This document shows, one piece after another, positions 214 to 10,293 of a stretch of DNA of 10,818 bases. This DNA comes from a virus (taxonomy: Duplodnaviria > Heunggongvirae > Uroviricota > Caudoviricetes). Positions within the stretch are counted from its first letter, which is position 1. Every line of letters begins with the position of its first letter. The position numbers were made by a program, and so were the translations under genes. The stretch is taken from IMG/VR virus record IMGVR_UViG_3300029816_000030, one strand, 5' to 3'. A model generated the notes under the pieces. It was given only the letters and a program-made list of their open reading frames with translations. It did no database searches and was not told the DNA's origin.

Positions 214-1971
214 TCACAGAATTAACAGGTCCTCATCAGGATCAAGCGTGGACAGAAAGTCATTCACGCCCCCGCCATTTACCAGAAAGCGGCTCATGGC
301 TGTAAAAAGCGCAACAGGGCCGTCGATTTTGGCTTCCGGCGTGGATTTATTCGGGAAGATGTTGTCGTTTTTGTCCGGTTTTACAGTAACGTTAGACATC
401 ATCCAGTTCATGACCGGATGATTGCTGTGATGGAAACGCCCGGCATAAACCAGTGATTCCGTTTCCTTCATGGCCTCTGACAGATTGCGGACCGTCTGCG
501 GAACCTCCACCAGCGGTATCCCTTCTTCAGCCAGTGCCAGACTGAACTGCATTGCGCTCCACGGGTCAAATCCCAGTTCCCTGAGGTTTTCACCGCCAAT
601 CCATTCCAGTAAGTCACTTTTTATCTGAGCATGATCGATAACATCACCATCCGTCAGGATGAGCTTATCCATCTCCGCCCACTTCCGGTAAAGTTCTGCC
701 TGCTGCCGCGAGCATCGTTCCAGCCGTCCTTCCGGAAGCCAGAATTTAAAATCAGCATGAACATGTCCGTTATCGGTTCGCCAGAGTTTTGCCGCCGCAC
801 AGATATCAATCTTATGAGCAAGGTCGACGCCGACCCACATGGGATATGTTTTCAGCTCATGTTGTGGAGCAATGTATTCGCACTTCTCCCACTTAATCAT
901 ATCCATCCAGGCAGATTCGGCAGTGACCCACACATTCATGTGTTTGGTAAAAAAATTCACCCGCGCAGAGACCTGCTCCTTCGCTTTTTTCGCCAGACGA
1001 CGCAGATCATCCCAGCGTTTACAGATGCCCAGGCCAGGATTCGCTTTCTGCCAGACCGTTTCATCAAACGGATCATCTCCCTCATCGAGCGTGTAAATGA
1101 TCGCAAAGTAAGAGTCGTCTTTTACAGCGCCCTCCACGTCGCTGTTATAGCCTCGCAATACCTTGATGGCGTAATCACGCTGCTCGTAACAAATCCCTTC
1201 CTTGTTAAAGCCAGCCGTGGTGATACCAAATAACAGGGACTGCAGACGGGCACCGGTTGCCGTTTCCAGAACGTCCCACACGTCGCGGGTTTTATGTGCA
1301 TGCAGCTCATCAATAATGGCGCAGTGGATGTTCAGACCGTCCAGGTTGTTTGCATCCGAGGAAAGCGGTTCAAATTTTGATGCGCTCTGCTCCTGGTAAA
1401 TCGCCAGCTTGTTGAAATCAAACAACCGCCCGAGTGTCGACCGGGCTTTTCTGACCATATTTTTGGCGTCTTCAAACACGATTCTGGCCTGGTCACGCGT
1501 GGTTGCGGCTGAATACACCTCAGCTCCGCCTTCACTATCTGCCCCCGTCATATACAGGCCGATACCCGATGACAGGGTTGATTTTGCGTTTTTACGGGCG
1601 ACTTCGTTGTACGCCGTCCGGAACCGGCGCACCATCACCGGACGTCCGCTGCCATCGCTGCGCATGACAACTTCCCCGGTTTCTTCATTGACCAGCGGAA
1701 TGACAAAACCAAAAATATTAATGAGGATAAATACATGCCAGTCCATCAACTCAATGGGCTGGCCTGCCAGTGCCCCTTTTACATGAGGCACAAATTTGTA
1801 GAAATTCAGGATGTGCTGCGCACGGGGTTCACTGAAATAAATCCCCCGCTTTTCGCCGTACTTCAGATCATCAAGAAAACGCTGGCAGGCCAGGCGGACA
1901 AATTCGCCAGCAACAATTTCTCCTGCAACAACACGTTCGGCGTAGCGGATCCCGTCAGCCACTTTTGCCAT
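214..1971 (-). CDS. phage terminase large subunit (HK97-like, ATPase plus nuclease)
   Basis: 585-aa ORF with ATG start and a GAGAG Shine-Dalgarno; deviant Walker A-like ARKNAKST followed by GAEVY, as in HK97-family TerL; start ATG overlaps the upstream terS stop (ATGA); sits downstream of HNH and TerS. Confidence 0.9.
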   Translation of the reverse strand: MAKVADGIRYAERVVAGEIVAGEFVRLACQRFLDDLKYGEKRGIYFSEPRAQHILNFYKFVPHVKGALAGQPIELMDWHVFILINIFGFVIPLVNEETGEVVMRSDGSGRPVMVRRFRTAYNEVARKNAKSTLSSGIGLYMTGADSEGGAEVYSAATTRDQARIVFEDAKNMVRKARSTLGRLFDFNKLAIYQEQSASKFEPLSSDANNLDGLNIHCAIIDELHAHKTRDVWDVLETATGARLQSLLFGITTAGFNKEGICYEQRDYAIKVLRGYNSDVEGAVKDDSYFAIIYTLDEGDDPFDETVWQKANPGLGICKRWDDLRRLAKKAKEQVSARVNFFTKHMNVWVTAESAWMDMIKWEKCEYIAPQHELKTYPMWVGVDLAHKIDICAAAKLWRTDNGHVHADFKFWLPEGRLERCSRQQAELYRKWAEMDKLILTDGDVIDHAQIKSDLLEWIGGENLRELGFDPWSAMQFSLALAEEGIPLVEVPQTVRNLSEAMKETESLVYAGRFHHSNHPVMNWMMSNVTVKPDKNDNIFPNKSTPEAKIDGPVALFTAMSRFLVNGGGVNDFLSTLDPDEDLLIL

Positions 1972-2453
1972 CAGTCTCTCGCTTTTAAAAGCTCTGCCAG
2001 CGGATCAACATTATCCGGTCCGGCGGTATTTACTTTTGCCCGGCTTGCCGGTGACATACCAAATTCTGCAAGCATCGCCCGGATCCGCTTCCAGGCATCC
2101 GCTTTCATCGCAGCAGCCGGGTGTGCCTTAATCAGCACATCACCGTTCTGCGTTTCCGAGCGGTAGGTGTACCCCTCAACATCGAGTGTTTCGCAGTGAT
2201 GCCGGTATTCGGTATAGGCTTCCACCAGTAGCTCAAGCGCACGCGCATCAAGCTGAGAAATGATCCCTTCCGCATTCAGCTCTTCCGCCATTCGCCTGAA
2301 CCAGTACTTCCCCTGCGCCCCTAAATGTTGCGGAATTTTAGGGAGACCTTTTTCATCCTTTTTAGCGGTTTTTTTGAGGTCTTTAACTGGCCGCTTTGAG
2401 GGGTTGCCTCGTATCAAATGCAGGCGTGGCGGGGTTTTCGGGGGTCCAGACAT
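1971..2453 (-). CDS. phage terminase small subunit (P27-family-like)
   Basis: 160-aa ORF with ATG start, basic N-terminus (PKTPPRLHLIRGNPSKRP), translationally coupled to terL through an ATGA overlap; position between HNH and TerL. Confidence 0.75.
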   Translation of the reverse strand: MSGPPKTPPRLHLIRGNPSKRPVKDLKKTAKKDEKGLPKIPQHLGAQGKYWFRRMAEELNAEGIISQLDARALELLVEAYTEYRHHCETLDVEGYTYRSETQNGDVLIKAHPAAAMKADAWKRIRAMLAEFGMSPASRAKVNTAGPDNVDPLAELLKARD

Positions 2454-2600
2454 AATCGGTTTTACCTATCAATCATTTAATCACATTCCAAAAAAAAGTT
2501 TTCGAACCTGCGGCGATGCGAGGAAAGGTCAGGCGGCGGTACTGAGCAGCCAGGGTTGCAGAGATTTGACCCGCCCCTCCCCTACAGATGGGAACTGTTA

Positions 2601-2951
2601 TCAATTGATGCGTTCGCGCGCTGTTTTTGCTTTATGACAGGGCCAGCACAGACTCTGCAGGTTACTGTCTGCATCCGTGCCACCATGAGCTTTCGGAATG
2701 ATGTGGTCCACAGTTCTGGCTTCAACGGCTCTCCCATTGCGCAGGCAGTTCTGACACAGATGATTATCACGCTTCAGTATGCGCGCACGTATGGCATCCC
2801 ATTTCGAGCCATAGCCACGCTGGTGGCGGCTCAGTCCGCGTTGATGCTGTACCCATCCTTCGCCACGATGTTTATCGCAGTAACCAGAACTGTCTGTGGT
2901 TGTACCTGCACATCCACGCTTACGGCAGGCGCGTGGGATTCGTGATGGCAT
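2601..2951 (-). CDS. HNH homing-type endonuclease (terminase-associated, HK97 gp74-like)
   Basis: 116-aa ORF, ATG start with GGGGGTGAG Shine-Dalgarno; HNH motif CQNCLRNG...VDHIIPKAHGG...NLQSLCWPCH (CxxC, DH, N, CxxCH); located just upstream of terS/terL. Confidence 0.85.
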   Translation of the reverse strand: MPSRIPRACRKRGCAGTTTDSSGYCDKHRGEGWVQHQRGLSRHQRGYGSKWDAIRARILKRDNHLCQNCLRNGRAVEARTVDHIIPKAHGGTDADSNLQSLCWPCHKAKTARERIN

Positions 2952-3403: not shown

Positions 3404-3889
3404 ATGCCAGAACTCGTTGATCCAACAGACTCATTAATTAGTTTTCAATACGCCTTTTCTAATGGTCTGATTAAGCCTTCACCATGCATAGTTCACCCAA
3501 ATATGAAGGTGCTTTTGGATGATGCAGAGGGTACACCACGGTTTACTTATGCATTCTTTGAAGGAGAAAATGTTAAAGGTGTTGCTATATATGTCCCTGC
3601 AGAGTTTGTTGAAGGTAAACCATGCTTTGGCGTTGGCTATGCAGTAGCCGATGAATATAAAGCGCAAGGCATCGGTACTCAACTTCTCATCGCCAGCATT
3701 GAAGAAATGCAATACGGATTTAGAAATTCCTTCAATGAATTCTATGTAGAGGCTATTGTCGGGGTTGGTAATCAAGCCTCCAACAAATTAGCTGCAAAAG
3801 TTTTATCTGATACTCCTGAGCCAGGGACAGATTCTTACTCAGGAAAACCTATCAATCAGTACATGAAACTTTTCAAAACCACAAAATAA
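3404..3889 (+). CDS. GNAT-fold N-acetyltransferase-like protein (moron, plus strand)
   Basis: 161-aa ORF, ATG start with AGGA Shine-Dalgarno 6 nt upstream; GNAT motif-A-like GVGYAVADEYKAQGIGTQLL and motif-B-like NQASNKLAAKV; AT-rich relative to flanks; opposite strand to all neighbours; followed by a hairpin terminator. Confidence 0.5.
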   Translation: MPELVDPTDSLISFQYAFSNGLIKPSPCIVHPNMKVLLDDAEGTPRFTYAFFEGENVKGVAIYVPAEFVEGKPCFGVGYAVADEYKAQGIGTQLLIASIEEMQYGFRNSFNEFYVEAIVGVGNQASNKLAAKVLSDTPEPGTDSYSGKPINQYMKLFKTTK

Positions 3890-4067: not shown

Positions 4068-4535
4068 TTATCTGAGACATTGCTCACGAATGTATAGCTG
4101 TGCCCCTTCCAGTTGCTTCTGCATCGTCATCAACCGTTCTCTGAGGGTGAAATAATCCCGTTCAGCGGTGTCTGCCAGTCGGGGGCTGGTTGCATTATCC
4201 ACGCTGGTGGGTCCGGTGGCTTCACGCACGGCTGCGGAGCAACTGGCATTGACCCGCAGGCGCTTACGACCAGCGGCAACATCAGCGCGCAGAGTTTCAT
4301 TTTCAGCTTTCGCATTGGCTAATTCTCTCGAGTACTTTGCATCGAGCGCAGCAACATCACGCTGACGCTGTTGCATGTCAGCGATGGTGGCAGTCGCCTG
4401 CTTCAGCTCACTGACTTTTTTATCACGCTGTTCTTTGTAGGCGATGGCGTTATCACGGTAATGATTGACCGCCCACGACAGGCAGACGATGGTGCAGATA
4501 ACCAGAGTATAAATAATCGCTGCGACTCTGCTCAC
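4068..4535 (-). CDS. Rz: spanin inner-membrane subunit Rz (i-spanin)
   Basis: Strong similarity to lambda Rz ([31 protein letters not shown]..., C-terminal [13 protein letters not shown]). Probable GTG start at 4535-4533 overlapping the endolysin TGA stop (GTGA); the ORF-track start at 4550 is TTG and adds MGDRS. Confidence 0.85.
4130..4315 (-). CDS. Rz1: spanin outer-membrane lipoprotein Rz1 (o-spanin), embedded in Rz in the +1 frame
   Basis: 61-aa ORF, ATG start, lipobox LVVSAC and proline-rich [30 protein letters not shown], near-identical in pattern to lambda Rz1; fully nested within Rz. Confidence 0.8.
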
Positions 4536-5065
4536 TGATCTATCCCCCAACAGGCTAATGCGCTTTCCTGGTCACGACGAATAACCTGTCCATAGCAGTT
4601 ATTTGAACGTATGCGGCAATCGCGCCCACCATCTTTTATCCACCAGCGAATCGCCTCGCATGCGCCCTTACGATCACCGGCATTCAACCGCTTATAAAAC
4701 GTCGACGGGAAACACTTACCGGGGCCAATGTTATAGGGACAGAATGACGCTATACCCGCTTTCTGTGGTTCGGTCAGTGGTACTTTAATATTGCGCTCCA
4801 CCCATGCCAGCGCCTTATCACGTTCAATAGCGTTAACCTGGTCGCATTTTTCCTTCGACAGCTTCATTCCCGGTATGACGGGCTTACCATCCACCATTGT
4901 GGCACCACGACAGATGGTCCATATACCGGAACCATCGCGGTATGCCGTAGTGTGGTTACCCTCTTTTTCATCCAGAAACTGGTCAAGTATTTGAGGAGCA
5001 GACGCGCCTGCAGCAATCAGCGCCAGAACAGCAGCTGACAGGCCGTATTTGATTTTTGCGCTCAT
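4532..5065 (-). CDS. R: phage endolysin (T4-type lysozyme) with N-terminal SAR or signal sequence
   Basis: 177 aa, ATG start; catalytic triad spacing E-x8-D-x5-T in [16 protein letters not shown]; N-terminus [22 protein letters not shown] is Gly/Ala-rich with a possible AxA cleavage site. Confidence 0.9.
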
Positions 5066-5120
5066 GGATATTTATCAGGATGCTACCAATGAAAGATACT
5101 GGAAAGCCAACTGCAAAAAG

Positions 5121-5435
5121 CTAACAACCTGTAATCGAGTTATCAGAACTGTTAATTTTTATGGTATACCGCGCCTCTGAACAGGGGCGCGTTTCTGGCA
5201 ACAGCTCGTCCCCTTCACATAACCCGGCAGCAACATCCAGGAAGACCTGTCTGATGCTCCTTCTGGCTGCTGCCTCATAAAACTCCAGCGCGGCACCTTC
5301 AACACGGTCCAGCGAGATGTCCAAGCCAAAAATTTCACCGTCAAAGCGTTTTTTGTCCCGTAACGCTAAAGTTACCGTAACTTTATTCTCAAAATTGCGG
5401 ATCCCTTTCACAATCAGTTCATAGTTTTGAGTCAT
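5121..5435 (-). CDS. YdfR-like (DUF1327-like) small protein between holin and endolysin
   Basis: 104-aa ORF, ATG with GGGGAGAG Shine-Dalgarno, starting 4 nt after the holin stop; same position as ydfR in the Qin lysis cassette as I recall it. Function unknown. Confidence 0.55.
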   Translation of the reverse strand: MTQNYELIVKGIRNFENKVTVTLALRDKKRFDGEIFGLDISLDRVEGAALEFYEAAARRSIRQVFLDVAAGLCEGDELLPETRPCSEARYTIKINSSDNSITGC

Positions 5436-5439
5436 TGAA

Positions 5440-5655
5440 TTACTCTCCCCGTGCAGCCTTACGCTTGTCTTCTCTGATTTTGAAGTACAGATTTGTCAGA
5501 TAAGTCAGGAAGCCCAGAACCAGACTCCCCAGTACACCAATCGCAGCCCACTGTGACGGACTGACCTGATCAAGCCACTGTAAAAACCAGTAGCCAGCAC
5601 TGCCTGCGGAGGTGCCGTAGGCAATGCCCGTTGAAATTTTGTCCATGGATTTCAT
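5440..5655 (-). CDS. S: class II holin/pinholin of phage 21 S type with dual-start motif
   Basis: 71 aa, [63 protein letters not shown]...; Met1-Lys2-Ser3-Met4 dual start as in the S21 antiholin/holin pair; strong GGAGGTGA Shine-Dalgarno. Confidence 0.9.
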
Positions 5656-5815
5656 AGCCTCACCTCCGCAAATAACGGATGGCGTAGTTTTACACTGAGA
5701 AATGAAAGGGATTTGAAAAGAAAAAACCGCAAAAGCGGGCGAAACGATATATACAGAAAGGAAAGCACTCTATCCAACAAACCACCCACAGTTAATCGGA
5801 ATAAAAGCAGAGTGC

Positions 5816-5888
5816 TTATGAATGATCGCCTGCCCGAAGGTTAGTATTTCTGCACAGCAATTTTGCAAAAAAAGGCGATCATTCATAA
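5816..5888. repeat. 15-bp perfect inverted repeat (TTATGAATGATCGCC / GGCGATCATTCATAA) with 43-nt spacer
   Basis: Arms at 5816-5830 and 5874-5888 are exact reverse complements; lies in the non-coding interval between the tRNA cluster and the holin gene. Confidence 0.6.
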
Positions 5889-5895
5889 CTTAAAC

Positions 5896-5942
5896 GTCTT
5901 TCAGTCACTCCGGGATTTCCCCATCATCGCAGACTGAAAGAC
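5896..5942 (-). terminator. stem-loop (11-bp inverted repeat) immediately 3' of tRNA-Gly; putative terminator or processing hairpin
   Basis: GTCTTTCAGTC (5896-5906) and GACTGAAAGAC (5932-5942) are exact reverse complements with a 25-nt loop; on the minus strand it starts 6 nt after the tRNA CCA end and is followed by GTTTAAGTTAT. Confidence 0.35.
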
Positions 5943-5948
5943 TCTAAC

Positions 5949-6023
<75 letters not shown>

Positions 6024-6139
6024 ATCCTGGAACTCGGCTACCTGATTTTCATTCTGCACTGAATATCGAGAGAAGCTCTCTTTATTCGAGCCGGTAAGCG
6101 AACTTATCGTCTCGGGCTACGCCATCGCGTGGCCGAAAT

Positions 6140-6224
<85 letters not shown>

Positions 6225-6232
6225 GGACTTGA

Positions 6233-6308
<76 letters not shown>

Positions 6309-6310
6309 AC

Positions 6311-6387
6311 TGGACCGCCACCGGGGACTCGAACCTCGCACACTCAACTTAAAGGGTTGACGCTCTTTCCTGATGAGCTAGTGGCGG
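6311..6387 (-). tRNA. atypical tRNA or tRNA-like gene (anticodon loop CCUUUAA, predicted anticodon UUU/Lys, with C33 and C1-G72)
   Basis: 77 nt, CCGCCACTAGCTCATCAGGAAAGAGCGTCAACCCTTTAAGTTGAGTGTGCGAGGTTCGAGTCCCCGGTGGCGGTCCA; perfect 7-bp acceptor stem, D stem GCTC/GAGC, anticodon stem TCAAC/GTTGA, T loop TTCGAGT, one A-C mismatch in the T stem, encoded CCA. Position 33 is C rather than the near-invariant U. Confidence 0.5.
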
Positions 6388-6388
6388 C

Positions 6389-6464
6389 TGGTGGCCCTTG
6401 CTGGATTTGAACCAGCGACCTGGCGATTATGAGTCGCTCGCTCTCACCACTGAGCTAAAGGGCC
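6389..6464 (-). tRNA. tRNA with CAU anticodon, ileX/ileZ-like (probable tRNA-Ile2 reading AUA after lysidine modification; elongator Met not excluded)
   Basis: 76 nt, GGCCCTTTAGCTCAGTGGTGAGAGCGAGCGACTCATAATCGCCAGGTCGCTGGTTCAAATCCAGCAAGGGCCACCA; anticodon arm core GCGACUCAUAAUCGC and acceptor C4-G69/C5-G68 match E. coli ileX as I recall it. Confidence 0.85.
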
Positions 6465-6473
6465 GGGCGCAGG

Positions 6474-6502
6474 ATAATAACGTTACGAAATCAATGTTGC
6501 AA
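6474..6502 (-). promoter_or_regulatory. sigma70-type promoter driving the tRNA cluster
   Basis: Minus strand reads TTGCAA (-35, 6502-6497), 17-bp spacer, TATTAT (-10, 6479-6474), then GC-rich discriminator CCTGCGCCC directly abutting the first tRNA 5' end at 6464. Confidence 0.5.
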
Positions 6503-6565: not shown

Positions 6566-6593
6566 GCACAAAAAACCCGCTTGTGGGCGGGTT
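6566..6593 (-). terminator. rho-independent terminator (tR'-like) downstream of the late promoter; hairpin with A-run and T-run flanks, possibly bidirectional
   Basis: AACCCGC-ttgtgg-GCGGGTT hairpin at 6574-6593; on the minus strand it is followed by TTTTTTGTG and on the plus strand by TTTGTTTGCTTTT. Confidence 0.6.
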
Positions 6594-6646
6594 TTGTTTG
6601 CTTTTGCCATCACGTACAAAATCGGCAAAATATCAGATTTGCATGA

Positions 6647-6675
6647 AATATATGCCTTTCAATCTACTTTTGCAA
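6647..6675 (-). promoter_or_regulatory. late promoter pR'-like, with a downstream -10-like pause element (putative Q-loading region)
   Basis: Minus strand: -35 TTGCAA (6675-6670, inside the 3' end of the Q-like gene), 17-bp spacer, -10 TATATT (6652-6647); then TGATATTTT (6635-6627), an extended -10-like element in the initial transcribed region; terminator about 50-70 nt downstream. Confidence 0.45.
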
Positions 6676-7348
6676 CACTTTGCTTTGAAAATGCCGCCTT
6701 TTGTTTTGAACGTGTTCTCATTACAAACAATAAAGCCTCACTATCCAGTCGGTGAAAAATGTGTTTCATTGCAACCCAGTGACGAGTAAATGTTTTGGAC
6801 CAGTTTTTAGTTGTCACTCCCGCCAGTAATGCCAGCTCCTGGTATTCATAACCTTCCCCACCAAAAAGTTCTGCTTTTACTGCCTGCGCCGCCAGCCAGA
6901 TTAATTTTTTCAGGCGTTCCTGCGTTTTCCCTGCAATTTTTTTGGTACCGGATTGAGTATTAAATTCATTCCACGCCCACTGTGTTATCGCGATCTGATA
7001 TTCCCAACAAATACTCCCGCTGTAACACCACAACAACCAGGCTTTATGATGTTCTTCAAGAGACAGAACAGCCCGCCGCCACGATGATGTCGAAAACTCA
7101 ACCGGACTGACGAGAGGAATTGACGTCCCCTTCGCCAGCGATTGCTTTCCCGGGATTGGTGGATTATCCCGCGTTATCATTTTTCCAGTCACTTCATCGC
7201 GGTACCGGATTTTTTTACGCCTGTAACGCCCTGTATCAAACATGGCATTCTCCTGCCAGGCCTCAAGCTGCCCTTTTGTTGATCCACTCAAATCGGCGGT
7301 GGCAATCATGAGTTGCTCACGAACAAACTGTAAATACTGGTTATTCAT
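6659..7348 (-). CDS. putative late-gene antiterminator Q (QuuQ-like)
   Basis: 229-aa ORF, ATG overlapping the rusA stop (ATGA); immediately upstream of a pR'-like promoter, short terminated transcript and the lysis genes. Assignment is mainly positional; the sequence was not confirmed by search. Confidence 0.5.
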   Translation of the reverse strand: MNNQYLQFVREQLMIATADLSGSTKGQLEAWQENAMFDTGRYRRKKIRYRDEVTGKMITRDNPPIPGKQSLAKGTSIPLVSPVEFSTSSWRRAVLSLEEHHKAWLLWCYSGSICWEYQIAITQWAWNEFNTQSGTKKIAGKTQERLKKLIWLAAQAVKAELFGGEGYEYQELALLAGVTTKNWSKTFTRHWVAMKHIFHRLDSEALLFVMRTRSKQKAAFSKQSVAKVD

Positions 7349-9213: not shown

Positions 9214-9369
9214 TTACTCCTCAGGTTCGTAAGCTGTGAAGACAGCGACCTCCGTCTGGCCGGTTCGGATTCGTACCTCGCAGAGGTCTTTCCTCGTTAC
9301 CAGTGCCGTCACTATGACGGTTAAACAGATGACGATCAGGGCGATTAACATCGCCTTTTGCTGCTTCAT
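9214..9369 (-). CDS. hokD: Hok/Gef-family type I toxin (HokD/RelF-like, 51 aa)
   Basis: MKQQKAMLIALIVICLTVIVTALVTRKDLCEVRIRTGQTEVAVFTAYEPEE matches HokD/RelF as I recall it; ATG at 9369 preceded by AAGGAG Shine-Dalgarno; the ORF track's 70-aa version (to 9426) is an in-frame upstream extension. Confidence 0.8.
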   Translation of the reverse strand: MKQQKAMLIALIVICLTVIVTALVTRKDLCEVRIRTGQTEVAVFTAYEPEE

Positions 9370-9545
9370 AGCCTGCTTCTCCTTGCCTTTCGGCACGTAA
9401 GAGGCTAACCTACATGTGTTCAGCATGGATTGAGCCTCAGATTAATGTTAAGCGTCTTGCAGGACGCGTAATGTTAACTGGGGCTTTTCTCTATCTGCCT
9501 TTTGGTGTTCATGCCTGAGGCAGATAGCCTCAAGCACCCGCAGCA

Positions 9546-9606: not shown

Positions 9607-10293
9607 TCACTCCTTCTCTTCTTTTCCGTAGTGGAGTTGGCCAATTTTGATAAGAGGGCGCCCCTGAGATTTGCGGTGTAGATTGGTATCGCGCAGAGAA
9701 TACACACAGCCACAATATTCCTGCTGATAGAATTTTTCGCGCTTGCTGATTTCAATCATACGGGACGAGCCGCCCTGCTTGCGCCAGTTATAATCCCAGT
9801 ACACCATACCCGGATAATGCGCAACAGCTCGCCGCCCACACTCGTTAACCTGCTGCATATTTTTCCAGCGTGAAATGCCCAGTGAACTGCTGATCACACT
9901 GAAACCATTTTCAGCAGCGTACAACGCTGTCCGCTCAAAACGCATGTCAAAACACATGGTACAACGGATCCCCCTCTCAGGCTCCCATTCCATTCCTTTG
10001 GCACGTTCAAACCAGTTGTCGGTGTCGTAATCAGCATCGATAAACGGCACGCCGTGTTGTTCAGCAAAGCGAATATTTTCATCCTTACGAATTAAATACT
10101 CTTTCTGAGGATGAATGTTCGGGTTGTAGAAAAAGATGGTGTAGTCGATTCCCGAGGCCTGAAGCGCCTCCATCACTTCACCGGAACATGGAGCACAGCA
10201 AGAGTGCAGTAGTAGTTTGTTTGCCCCGTTTGGGAGCTCCAATTTAGGCCGTTTGAAATCAGCAATAGTCATAAATATTTTTATTGGGGTCAT
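9607..10293 (-). CDS. QueH-like (DUF208) putative epoxyqueuosine reductase
   Basis: 228-aa ORF, ATG start (alternative ATG at codon 8); N-terminal [11 protein letters not shown] and C-terminal EYCGCVYS cysteine motifs as I recall for DUF208/QueH; no clear Shine-Dalgarno; flanked by 153-bp and 180-bp non-coding gaps. Confidence 0.5.

Follow-up and report, generated by a model that had tools for sequence, protein, structure and literature searches.

A probable phage 82-type late-gene switch at the 3' end of the Q gene of a common Escherichia coli prophage, with a leader RNA related to IsrJ

What does the short minus-strand stretch of about 110 bases (6566-6675) do that begins in the last codons of a Q-like antiterminator gene and runs on into the DNA beyond it? 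It belongs to a sequence of 10,818 nucleotides from a virus of the class Caudoviricetes (IMG/VR record IMGVR_UViG_3300029816_000030), the whole of which is called the window here. The initial annotation had proposed a compact late-control module with a promoter, a sigma70-dependent pause element and a terminator. Late-gene regulatory cassettes of this kind are defined by a Q gene, the promoter PR', a sigma70-dependent pause element (SDPE), a terminator and the late genes (bioRxiv 10.1101/651190; PMC9388147). At the level of sequence the window holds the full set: a Q gene, a promoter, a pause element, a terminator, and lysis and packaging genes on the same strand. The Q family can be named, the elements are conserved across relatives together with their spacing, and the predicted leader RNA is homologous to isrJ. 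We consider it highly probable that the stretch controls the late genes of a phage 82-type lambdoid E. coli prophage, as its PR', qut and tR' cassette. The module is an ordinary late switch, a further example of a well-known kind, and leaves the textbook picture unchanged.

The gene upstream of the module had been assigned to Q from the sequence alone, and this is borne out. The open reading frame (7348-6659) matches Pfam family PF06323 with E = 2.4e-92 and 309 bits against a cut-off of 25, over residues 4-220 of 229. Its product is 76% identical to phage 82 Q, a protein of equal length, and 73% identical to phage 434 Q. PF06323 is named the Q82 family and is one of three unrelated families of Q proteins; of these it alone lacks a solved structure, and it may or may not use the 'nozzle' mechanism (PMC9388147). 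A search of solved structures with the window Q protein gave no relevant match. The gene order on the minus strand is QueH, hok/sok, a DUF968/YdfU protein, RusA, Q, the module, five tRNA genes, an S21-type holin, DUF1327, lysozyme, Rz, HNH, TerS and TerL.

The DNA of the module is 100% identical to that of two records named as phage isolates, vB_EcoM-606R7 and vB_EcoS-689R5, and 98.8% identical to that of the 'PPompW' prophages of strains that carry Stx2a phages. Among 5426 complete E. coli genomes, 1258 (~23%) carry the module, O157:H7 and O145:H28 strains included; these genomes come from varied sources.

The minus-strand end of the Q reading frame is ...GTT GCA AAA GTA GAT TGA. Its stop codon occupies 6661-6659 and the -10 hexamer begins 6 nt beyond it (Table 1). 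The promoter had been placed with its -35 hexamer in the last Q codons and its -10 just after the stop, and this location stands; the description 'near-consensus' is slightly generous, as 9 of the 12 consensus positions are matched in a consensus scan. Transcription probably starts within 6640-6643, a placement with a precision of about 3 nt: the spacing from the -10 hexamer gives A6640, which is taken as +1, and the full-length alignments to the Rfam isrJ and isrK models begin at 6643 and 6642 respectively. The predicted pause position shifts with it. Neither the hexamers nor the extended -10 pattern is unusual in number: six promoter-like sites were found by the promoter scan in 2.4 kb (2.8 +/- 1.9 expected), and TGNTATNNT occurs three times in the window against 4.3 expected. 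The case for the module therefore rests on its context and on a conserved, fixed arrangement. The Q binding element (QBE) of the phage 82 PR' sits between the -35 and the -10 (PMC4914094), and by analogy that of the window would be expected in the spacer. A search of this spacer for a QBE gave no repeat or motif that could be so assigned with confidence; the spacer differs between groups of relatives and partly encodes the C-terminus of Q.

Table 1. Features of the module and its surroundings in the window (positions of the whole window; +1 is A6640)
Feature	Position	Strand	Basis
Q antiterminator gene, 229 aa, Q82 family	6659..7348	-	Pfam PF06323; identity to phage 82 Q
PR' -35 hexamer TTGCAA, within the last Q codons GTT GCA AAA	6675-6670	-	Promoter scan; conservation
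17-nt spacer (last two Q codons and stop); expected place of the QBE by analogy with phage 82	6653..6669	-	Inference
PR' -10 hexamer TATATT	6652-6647	-	Promoter scan; conservation
Probable transcription start; A6640, 7th base past the -10 hexamer, taken as +1	6640..6643	-	Spacing rule; isrJ and isrK model alignments
SDPE, extended -10-like TGATATTTT, +6 to +14	6635-6627	-	Coordinates confirmed; conservation
Predicted pause position, +24/+25	6616..6617	-	Lambda offset; phage 82 pause
Leader inverted repeat, U11-C17 with G33-A39, short inner stem	6602..6630	-	MFE fold
tR' intrinsic terminator, A4-CCCGC, loop CCACAA, GCGGG-U6	6595-6570	-	Fold; conservation
Predicted terminated leader RNA, about 70 nt, IsrJ-like, analogous to lambda 6S RNA	6570..6640	-	isrJ match; fold
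Separate promoter-like site TTGCAA-17-TATTAT, directly upstream of the tRNAs, outside PR'	6502-6474	-	Promoter scan
Five tRNA genes, Met(CAT), Lys, Thr, Tyr, Gly; first genes past tR'	5949..6464	-	ARAGORN, Rfam
Lysis cassette: S21-type holin, DUF1327, lysozyme, Rz	4068..5655	-	Pfam PF04971, PF07041, PF00959, PF03245
HNH, TerS, TerL	2951-214	-	Follow the lysis cassette

The extended -10-like sequence that had been noted in the initial transcribed region is present, at fixed spacing and with the bases contacted by sigma conserved. Sigma70 recognises the pattern TGnTAnnnT through its region 3.0 (TG) and its region 2 (hexamer positions 2 and 6). In lambda, polymerase pauses 10-11 nt downstream of the -10-like hexamer; with the corresponding hexamer of the window at +9 to +14, this offset leads to the pause predicted in Table 1. 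That position would agree with the native sigma70-dependent RNA polymerase pause at +25 published for the phage 82 PR' (PMC4914094).

A strong hairpin terminator had likewise been called downstream of the promoter, and it is there. From 6595 to 6570 the minus strand reads AAAACCCGC-CCACAA-GCGGGUUUUUU, and the RNA would form a hairpin of 9 bp, AAAACCCGC-CCACAA-GCGGGUUUU(UU), followed by U6 and ending at ~+70. It folds at -13 kcal/mol with z = -3.5, a value reached by none of 200 shuffled sequences. The terminator scan called this hairpin on the plus strand only; the miss on the minus strand is an artefact of the scan, in which the U-run was taken into the A/U extension of the stem so that the tail rule failed. 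The tR' hairpin is a symmetric (bidirectional) terminator. For the 72-nt transcript as a whole the folding energy is -20.9 kcal/mol (z = -2.9). The inverted repeat that precedes the terminator is weak in the window (z = -1.46, 20 of 200 shuffles as good). Some relatives form it strongly (z about -3.3 to -3.5), most loci with a leader of the GTCG...CGAC type described below only weakly (z -0.3 to -1.2, with L010 reaching -2.3), and the short form of the module lacks it. Covariation among relatives that share the leader type of the window is modest: 20 of 500 shuffles were as good and the double changes all come from one sequence. A leader hairpin as an established part of the mechanism was for these reasons rejected, and it is left out of the scheme proposed below.

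A comparison across relatives shows which of these elements are maintained. In all, 277 loci were gathered and the region past the Q stop was extracted from 267 sequences, the window counted, anchored on the module. The arrangement TTGCAA-17-hexamer-11-TGnTAnnnT is present without gaps at 255 of the 267 loci, so that the SDPE lies exactly 11 nt past the -10 hexamer in each of them. Among 122 unique sequences all six bases of the -35 are conserved near-maximally while the neighbouring coding columns vary. Within the -10 hexamer positions 2, 4 and 6 are the most conserved; positions 2 and 6 are those that sigma70 reads most specifically. In the pause element near-maximal conservation extends to T+6, G+7, A+8, T+9, A+10, T+11 and T+14, with +12 and +13 free, and beyond +15 the leader is largely unconserved across the family. 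In 145 of 152 unique sequences a canonical terminator begins within the interval from +25 to +90, and in close relatives its loop and U-tract vary while the stem is preserved.

The same holds at greater distances. The Q proteins of E. coli phage LLS, Aeromonas phage pAEv1818 and Citrobacter phage phiNP are 29-36% identical to that of the window, and all three keep TTGCAA-17-(G/C)ATATT-11-TGATA(C/A/T)nTT and a terminator. Two of these three distant members, LLS and phiNP, have the module in non-coding DNA, 31 nt past the Q stop. The conservation of the -35 is therefore not a coding artefact, since TTGCAA is also found outside the Q coding sequence. Invariant sigma70-contact bases at fixed spacing are the signature of a DNA element rather than of an RNA seed or a coding constraint. 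In two loci, L004 (E. coli ECMA0423) and L005 (Shigella flexneri), three lesions occur together: Q is truncated, 1 nt is missing between the -10 and the start, and the terminator stem is mutated. These are decayed copies of the module.

The family includes a short form and several long forms. In the short form, represented by 434, phiES15, LLS, pAEv1818 and phiNP, the terminator stem starts at about +28. Long forms carry an inverted repeat at about +10 to +39 and a later terminator, which in the window begins at +46. Their leaders are of three unrelated types: GCC...GGC, to which the window belongs; GTCG...CGAC, which corresponds to Rfam isrJ; and ATGCUGCC...GGCGGCAU, found in Klebsiella phages.

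Since the phage 82 record (X92588) goes no further than the Q stop, the downstream sequence was taken from phage 434 as a proxy; the Q proteins of the two phages are 89% identical. The phage 82 record ends within the Q gene with the same TTGCAAAACTGGATTAA and holds ATTGCAAAACTGGATTAA; phage 434 continues past the end of Q with AAGCCATATACTTCATGCAAATTTGGTATGTTGTAAAAAATGTATAAACCCGCTGCCGAGTGGGTTTTTTTT. Like the window, both phages have a Q82-family Q of the same length with the -35 TTGCAA in its last codons. The likeness to 434 extends to the 17-nt spacer, a -10 of the form TATAnT, TGnTATnTT 11 nt past the -10, and then an intrinsic terminator. The late region of 434 can be seen as a near-copy of that of phage 82. 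The window differs from it in 4 of the 17 positions of the spacer, the putative QBE, and in an added inverted repeat, about 18-20 nt long, that separates pause and terminator.

The phage 434 record also raises a different reading of the -35. TTGCAA is palindromic, and could form part of a plus-strand, CII-activated antisense promoter (similar to paQ) that damps Q, instead of or beside PR'. The plus strand at 6670-6683, TTGCAACACTTTGC, does fit the CII consensus TTGC-N6-TTGC, and the homologous site is annotated in phage 434 as a CII site and as the -35 of paQ. That annotation is based on the consensus only, no convincing plus-strand -10 lies downstream, and the window is without a cII gene. 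Moreover, the second TTGC is not kept in Klebsiella and Enterobacter loci, in which TTGCAA itself is. We regard this reading as unlikely. In the E. coli members a CII site may nonetheless overlap the promoter.

A search of Rfam at gathering thresholds found nothing at the site of the module. In a permissive search two small RNA models match over their full length: isrJ (RF01393) at 6571-6643, with 24.5 bits against a gathering score of 37 and E = 0.005, and isrK at 6570-6642, with 22.7 bits against a gathering score of 50. Because the isrJ score lies below the gathering score, the window RNA is to be seen as a diverged relative of isrJ and not as a formal member. The isrJ consensus starts with uguAaauCUGAUAuC, which corresponds to the start region plus the pause element. 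The window and the Salmonella Gifsy-1 IsrJ have in common the promoter TTGCAA-17-TATATT and the first 15 nt (UGUAAAUCUGAUAUC against UGCAAAUCUGAUAUU), as well as the layout of two hairpins, the length, and the position relative to the 3' end of a Q82-type Q; they differ in the leader hairpin and the linker, whose sequences in the window are unrelated to those of the GTCG...CGAC type. Relatives with the GTCG...CGAC leader score 38-100 bits for isrJ, and at five other loci an above-threshold isrJ lies exactly 16 nt past the Q stop, the same offset as in the window.

The isrJ of the Salmonella prophage Gifsy-1 scores 100 bits and is preceded by ...GTGATTGCAAAACTGGATTAAAACGGCTATATTTTATGTAAATCTGATATC. 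This upstream DNA is the remnant 3' end of a Q82-type Q followed by the same promoter with TATATT. The Gifsy-1 antQ is 68% identical to the window Q over residues 1-218. Between antQ and the promoter Gifsy-1 has a block, isrK-orf45-anrP, which also matches Rfam C4 and a1b1. The Gifsy-1 isrJ gene is thus the same module, and we infer from these similarities that IsrJ would be the leader RNA of a late promoter of the Q82 type. In the IsrJ literature cited here IsrJ is not called a late-promoter leader. It was reported as a transcript of about 74 nt whose 5' end was located by primer extension and whose 3' end is rho-independent (PMC2330248). It has a transcription start of its own (PMC4825925) and was highly transcribed in 17 of 17 conditions tested in a lysogen (PMC7067206). 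A constitutive PR' that ends at tR' would be expected to behave in this way. The short 6S-like transcript predicted for the window thus receives indirect in vivo support through its homologue, with a length of about 74 nt, a mapped 5' end and an active promoter (PMC2330248).

These relationships also suggest the converse reading, in which the unit is primarily a stand-alone small RNA gene (IsrJ-like, Hfq-binding and trans-acting) and late control is located elsewhere. In addition to the full-length matches to isrJ and isrK, the leader contains a pair of hairpins, an A-rich linker (AAAAGCAAACAAAA) and a U-tail; a virulence phenotype has been reported for IsrJ in Salmonella (PMC2330248); and StxS of Stx1 and Stx2a phages provides a precedent, as an Hfq-dependent regulatory RNA made from a terminated PR' leader (PMC7547250). 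The constitutive PR' transcript ended at tR' in lysogeny is a feature that StxS would share with the module; it differs in belonging to another Q family, in its sequence and in being processed from a 258-nt leader (PMC7547250). The pattern of conservation is that of a pause element acting as DNA and not of an RNA seed: the invariant bases are the sigma70 contacts of an extended -10 at a fixed distance from the promoter, the leader past +15 is unconserved and exists in three unrelated types besides the short form, and the module comes with a Q82-family gene in every case, the late genes following it. A primary small RNA gene is thus very unlikely here. It is possible, if rather doubtful, that the leader of about 70 nt is in addition a constitutive trans-acting small RNA of the IsrJ type. 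On that equally tentative reading the variable part of the leader, with its inverted repeat, A-rich linker and U-tail, would be shaped as an RNA, and its first 14 nt would be fixed by the DNA pause element. Such a role would be added to late-gene control and would not substitute for it.

Two further candidates for comparison were set aside. The Qin prophage of K-12 was considered as a homologue with transcription start data; its Q (YdfT) is unrelated, and a lambda-like AACGAT element is found in the leader. HnrS, a 66-nt multicopy prophage small RNA of EHEC which was compared by its description only, is probably different from the window RNA, since it was reported almost only from EHEC and EPEC whereas the module occurs in a varied set of genomes. 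The HnrS paper never mentions antitermination.

A sequence of the form TGnTAnnnT can also work as a promoter without a -35 element. TGATATTTT could then itself be an extended -10 promoter that drives a second, shorter transcript from near +21, with no pause element involved. The 5' end of IsrJ and the starts of the Rfam models lie upstream of the element, at UGUAAAUCUGAUAU (PMC2330248), the phage 82 PR' has its pause at +25 (PMC4914094), and a constant distance of 11 nt from the -10 hexamer is expected of a pause element and not of an independent promoter; together these make a second promoter highly improbable. It is scarcely credible that the hexamers and TGATATTTT match by chance and that the hairpin simply terminates the Q (early right) operon: such sites do occur in the window at chance frequency, and the hairpin lies directly 3' of the Q gene and is called a terminator on both strands, but chance is excluded by the conservation of bases and spacing at 255 of 267 loci, the module being kept next to Q proteins 29-36% identical and as non-coding DNA in LLS and phiNP, and the start of a homologous transcript has been mapped in IsrJ (PMC2330248).

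Taken as a late switch, the module can be set beside those of other lambdoid phages. Lambda (PR', 6S RNA and tR') and phage 21 (PR') follow the same logic, with a constitutive promoter after the Q gene, then a sigma70-dependent pause element, and a terminator ahead of the late genes (bioRxiv 10.1101/651190; PMC9388147). The Q proteins of these phages are unrelated to that of the window, belonging to PF03589 and PF06530 and not to PF06323. The whole unit of the window fits in about 110 bp. In lambda the pause is at +16/17 and the terminated RNA is 194 nt long. The end of the lambda terminated RNA has been given as +193 (PMC4914094).

We propose the following scheme, in which pausing, Q loading and readthrough are taken from the biochemistry of phages 82, 21 and lambda. 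RNA polymerase with sigma70 would start constitutively at about 6640 from TTGCAA-17-TATATT. Sigma70 region 2/3 would then re-bind the non-template strand of TGATATTTT (+6 to +14), and the complex would pause at about +24/+25. Without Q, polymerase would escape and stop at the hairpin and U6 (about +70), and the IsrJ-related leader RNA of about 70 nt would be freed. Once made, the Q82-family protein would bind the DNA of the promoter spacer and engage the paused complex with the help of NusA. Q would then ride with polymerase, which would pass tR' and later terminators and so transcribe the tRNAs, the lysis cassette and the packaging genes.

The lysis cassette is the presumed target of this Q-dependent readthrough. 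The tRNA genes had been named as targets as well, and in this respect the initial annotation needs correction: they are probably not strictly Q-dependent, since they have their own conserved promoter-like site, TTGCAA-17-TATTAT, at 6502-6474. In Stx2 phages the DNA across the start of ileZ (tRNA-Ile) shares 91% identity with this stretch, and an equivalent, TTGCAG-17-TATTAT, is found in two related loci (L006 and L016). Between the tRNAs and the holin, at about 5741-5716, there is a small terminator-like hairpin with a U-run. If functional, it would keep the lysis genes dependent on polymerase modified by Q.

The analysis confirms the assignment of Q and delimits the late switch of a prophage type that is very common in E. 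coli. The arrangement TTGCAA-17-nAnAnT-11-TGnTAnnnT followed by a terminator is a clean, family-wide signature of Q82-type late promoters and could be used for annotation. For those who work on Q82, a family with no solved structure that may or may not use the nozzle, the natural panel of PR' variants with short and long leaders may be useful. The link with IsrJ joins the small RNA literature to the classical biochemistry of antitermination and, if true, the virulence-associated small RNA IsrJ would have to be seen as a late-promoter leader of the Q82 type.

The DNA that directly follows the tR′ terminator varies among phages (comparison loci L011, L099 and L104 and other relatives): tRNAs, the Rfam families STnc100 or isrI, a kinase/phosphatase pair, or the lysis genes directly can occupy this position. 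One leader type is also found with differing Q 3′ ends among these relatives. Taken together, the variable cargo on one side and the differing Q ends on the other make the conserved −35 to +14 segment, numbered from the inferred PR′ start, look like a mosaic recombination joint.

Salmonella prophage Gifsy-1 carries a further block at this boundary (Table). In addition to isrK, the block matches the Rfam C4 antisense RNA family and its a1/b1 targets. Judged from these matches and from its location, it looks like a c4-ant immunity module of the P1/P7 type inserted in the Q 3′ end. A lambda-like arrangement is also present in the E. coli K-12 Qin prophage, where promoter-like hexamers, AACGATGGGC and a terminator occur together. 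The cassette logic is the same as that of the window but the Q family is different, ydfT being unrelated to the window Q.

Features of the window and of the comparison loci (window positions unless a locus is named)
Feature	Position	Strand	Details
isrK-orf45-anrP block	L098 (Gifsy-1, NC_010392.1), locus 1898-2821		Separates antQ from the late promoter of Q82 type (isrJ)
Lambda-like arrangement	L106 (E. coli K-12 Qin prophage), locus about 6380-6490	minus	Downstream of Q gene ydfT
CII-consensus match	6670-6683	plus	TTGCAACACTTTGC; TTGC-N6-TTGC (lambda CII site); antisense to Q 3′ end
Promoter-like site	6474-6502	minus	TTGCAA-17-TATTAT; directly upstream of tRNA-Met(CAT)
Two long hairpins	5815-5950	minus	Stems GTCTTTCAGTC...GACTGAAAGAC and ATGAATGATCGCC...GGCGATCATTCAT; flanked by tRNA-Gly and holin gene
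Terminator-like element	5716-5741	minus	Small; CCGC-UUUU-GCGG, then U6CU4
Epoxyqueuosine reductase QueH homologue	9607-10293	minus	PF02677
hok/sok toxin-antitoxin pair	9214-9539	minus	PF01848; Rfam RF01794
GNAT acetyltransferase	3404-3889	plus	Oppositely oriented; between lysis and terminase genes

The Q 3′ end of the window includes a match to the CII consensus, and the homologous site in the phage 434 record is annotated as a CII site together with the paQ −35. The hexamer TTGCAA is identical to its own reverse complement.

The promoter-like site preceding the first tRNA lies in a stretch with 91% identity to Stx2-phage DNA that overlaps the ileZ (tRNA-Ile) start. These two observations suggest a putative promoter belonging to the tRNA cluster itself, and the CAT-anticodon tRNA may be a tRNA-Ile of the ileZ type. 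Beyond the tRNAs, the pair of hairpins folds at −52.7 kcal/mol (z = −6.0), a stability reached by none of 200 shuffles, and has no match among Rfam families at gathering score; a processing site, a small RNA and a mobile repeat are all possible roles. The terminator-like element precedes the holin start by about 60 nt; it has a fold z of only −1.7 and could act as a second barrier that holds the lysis genes to Q dependence.
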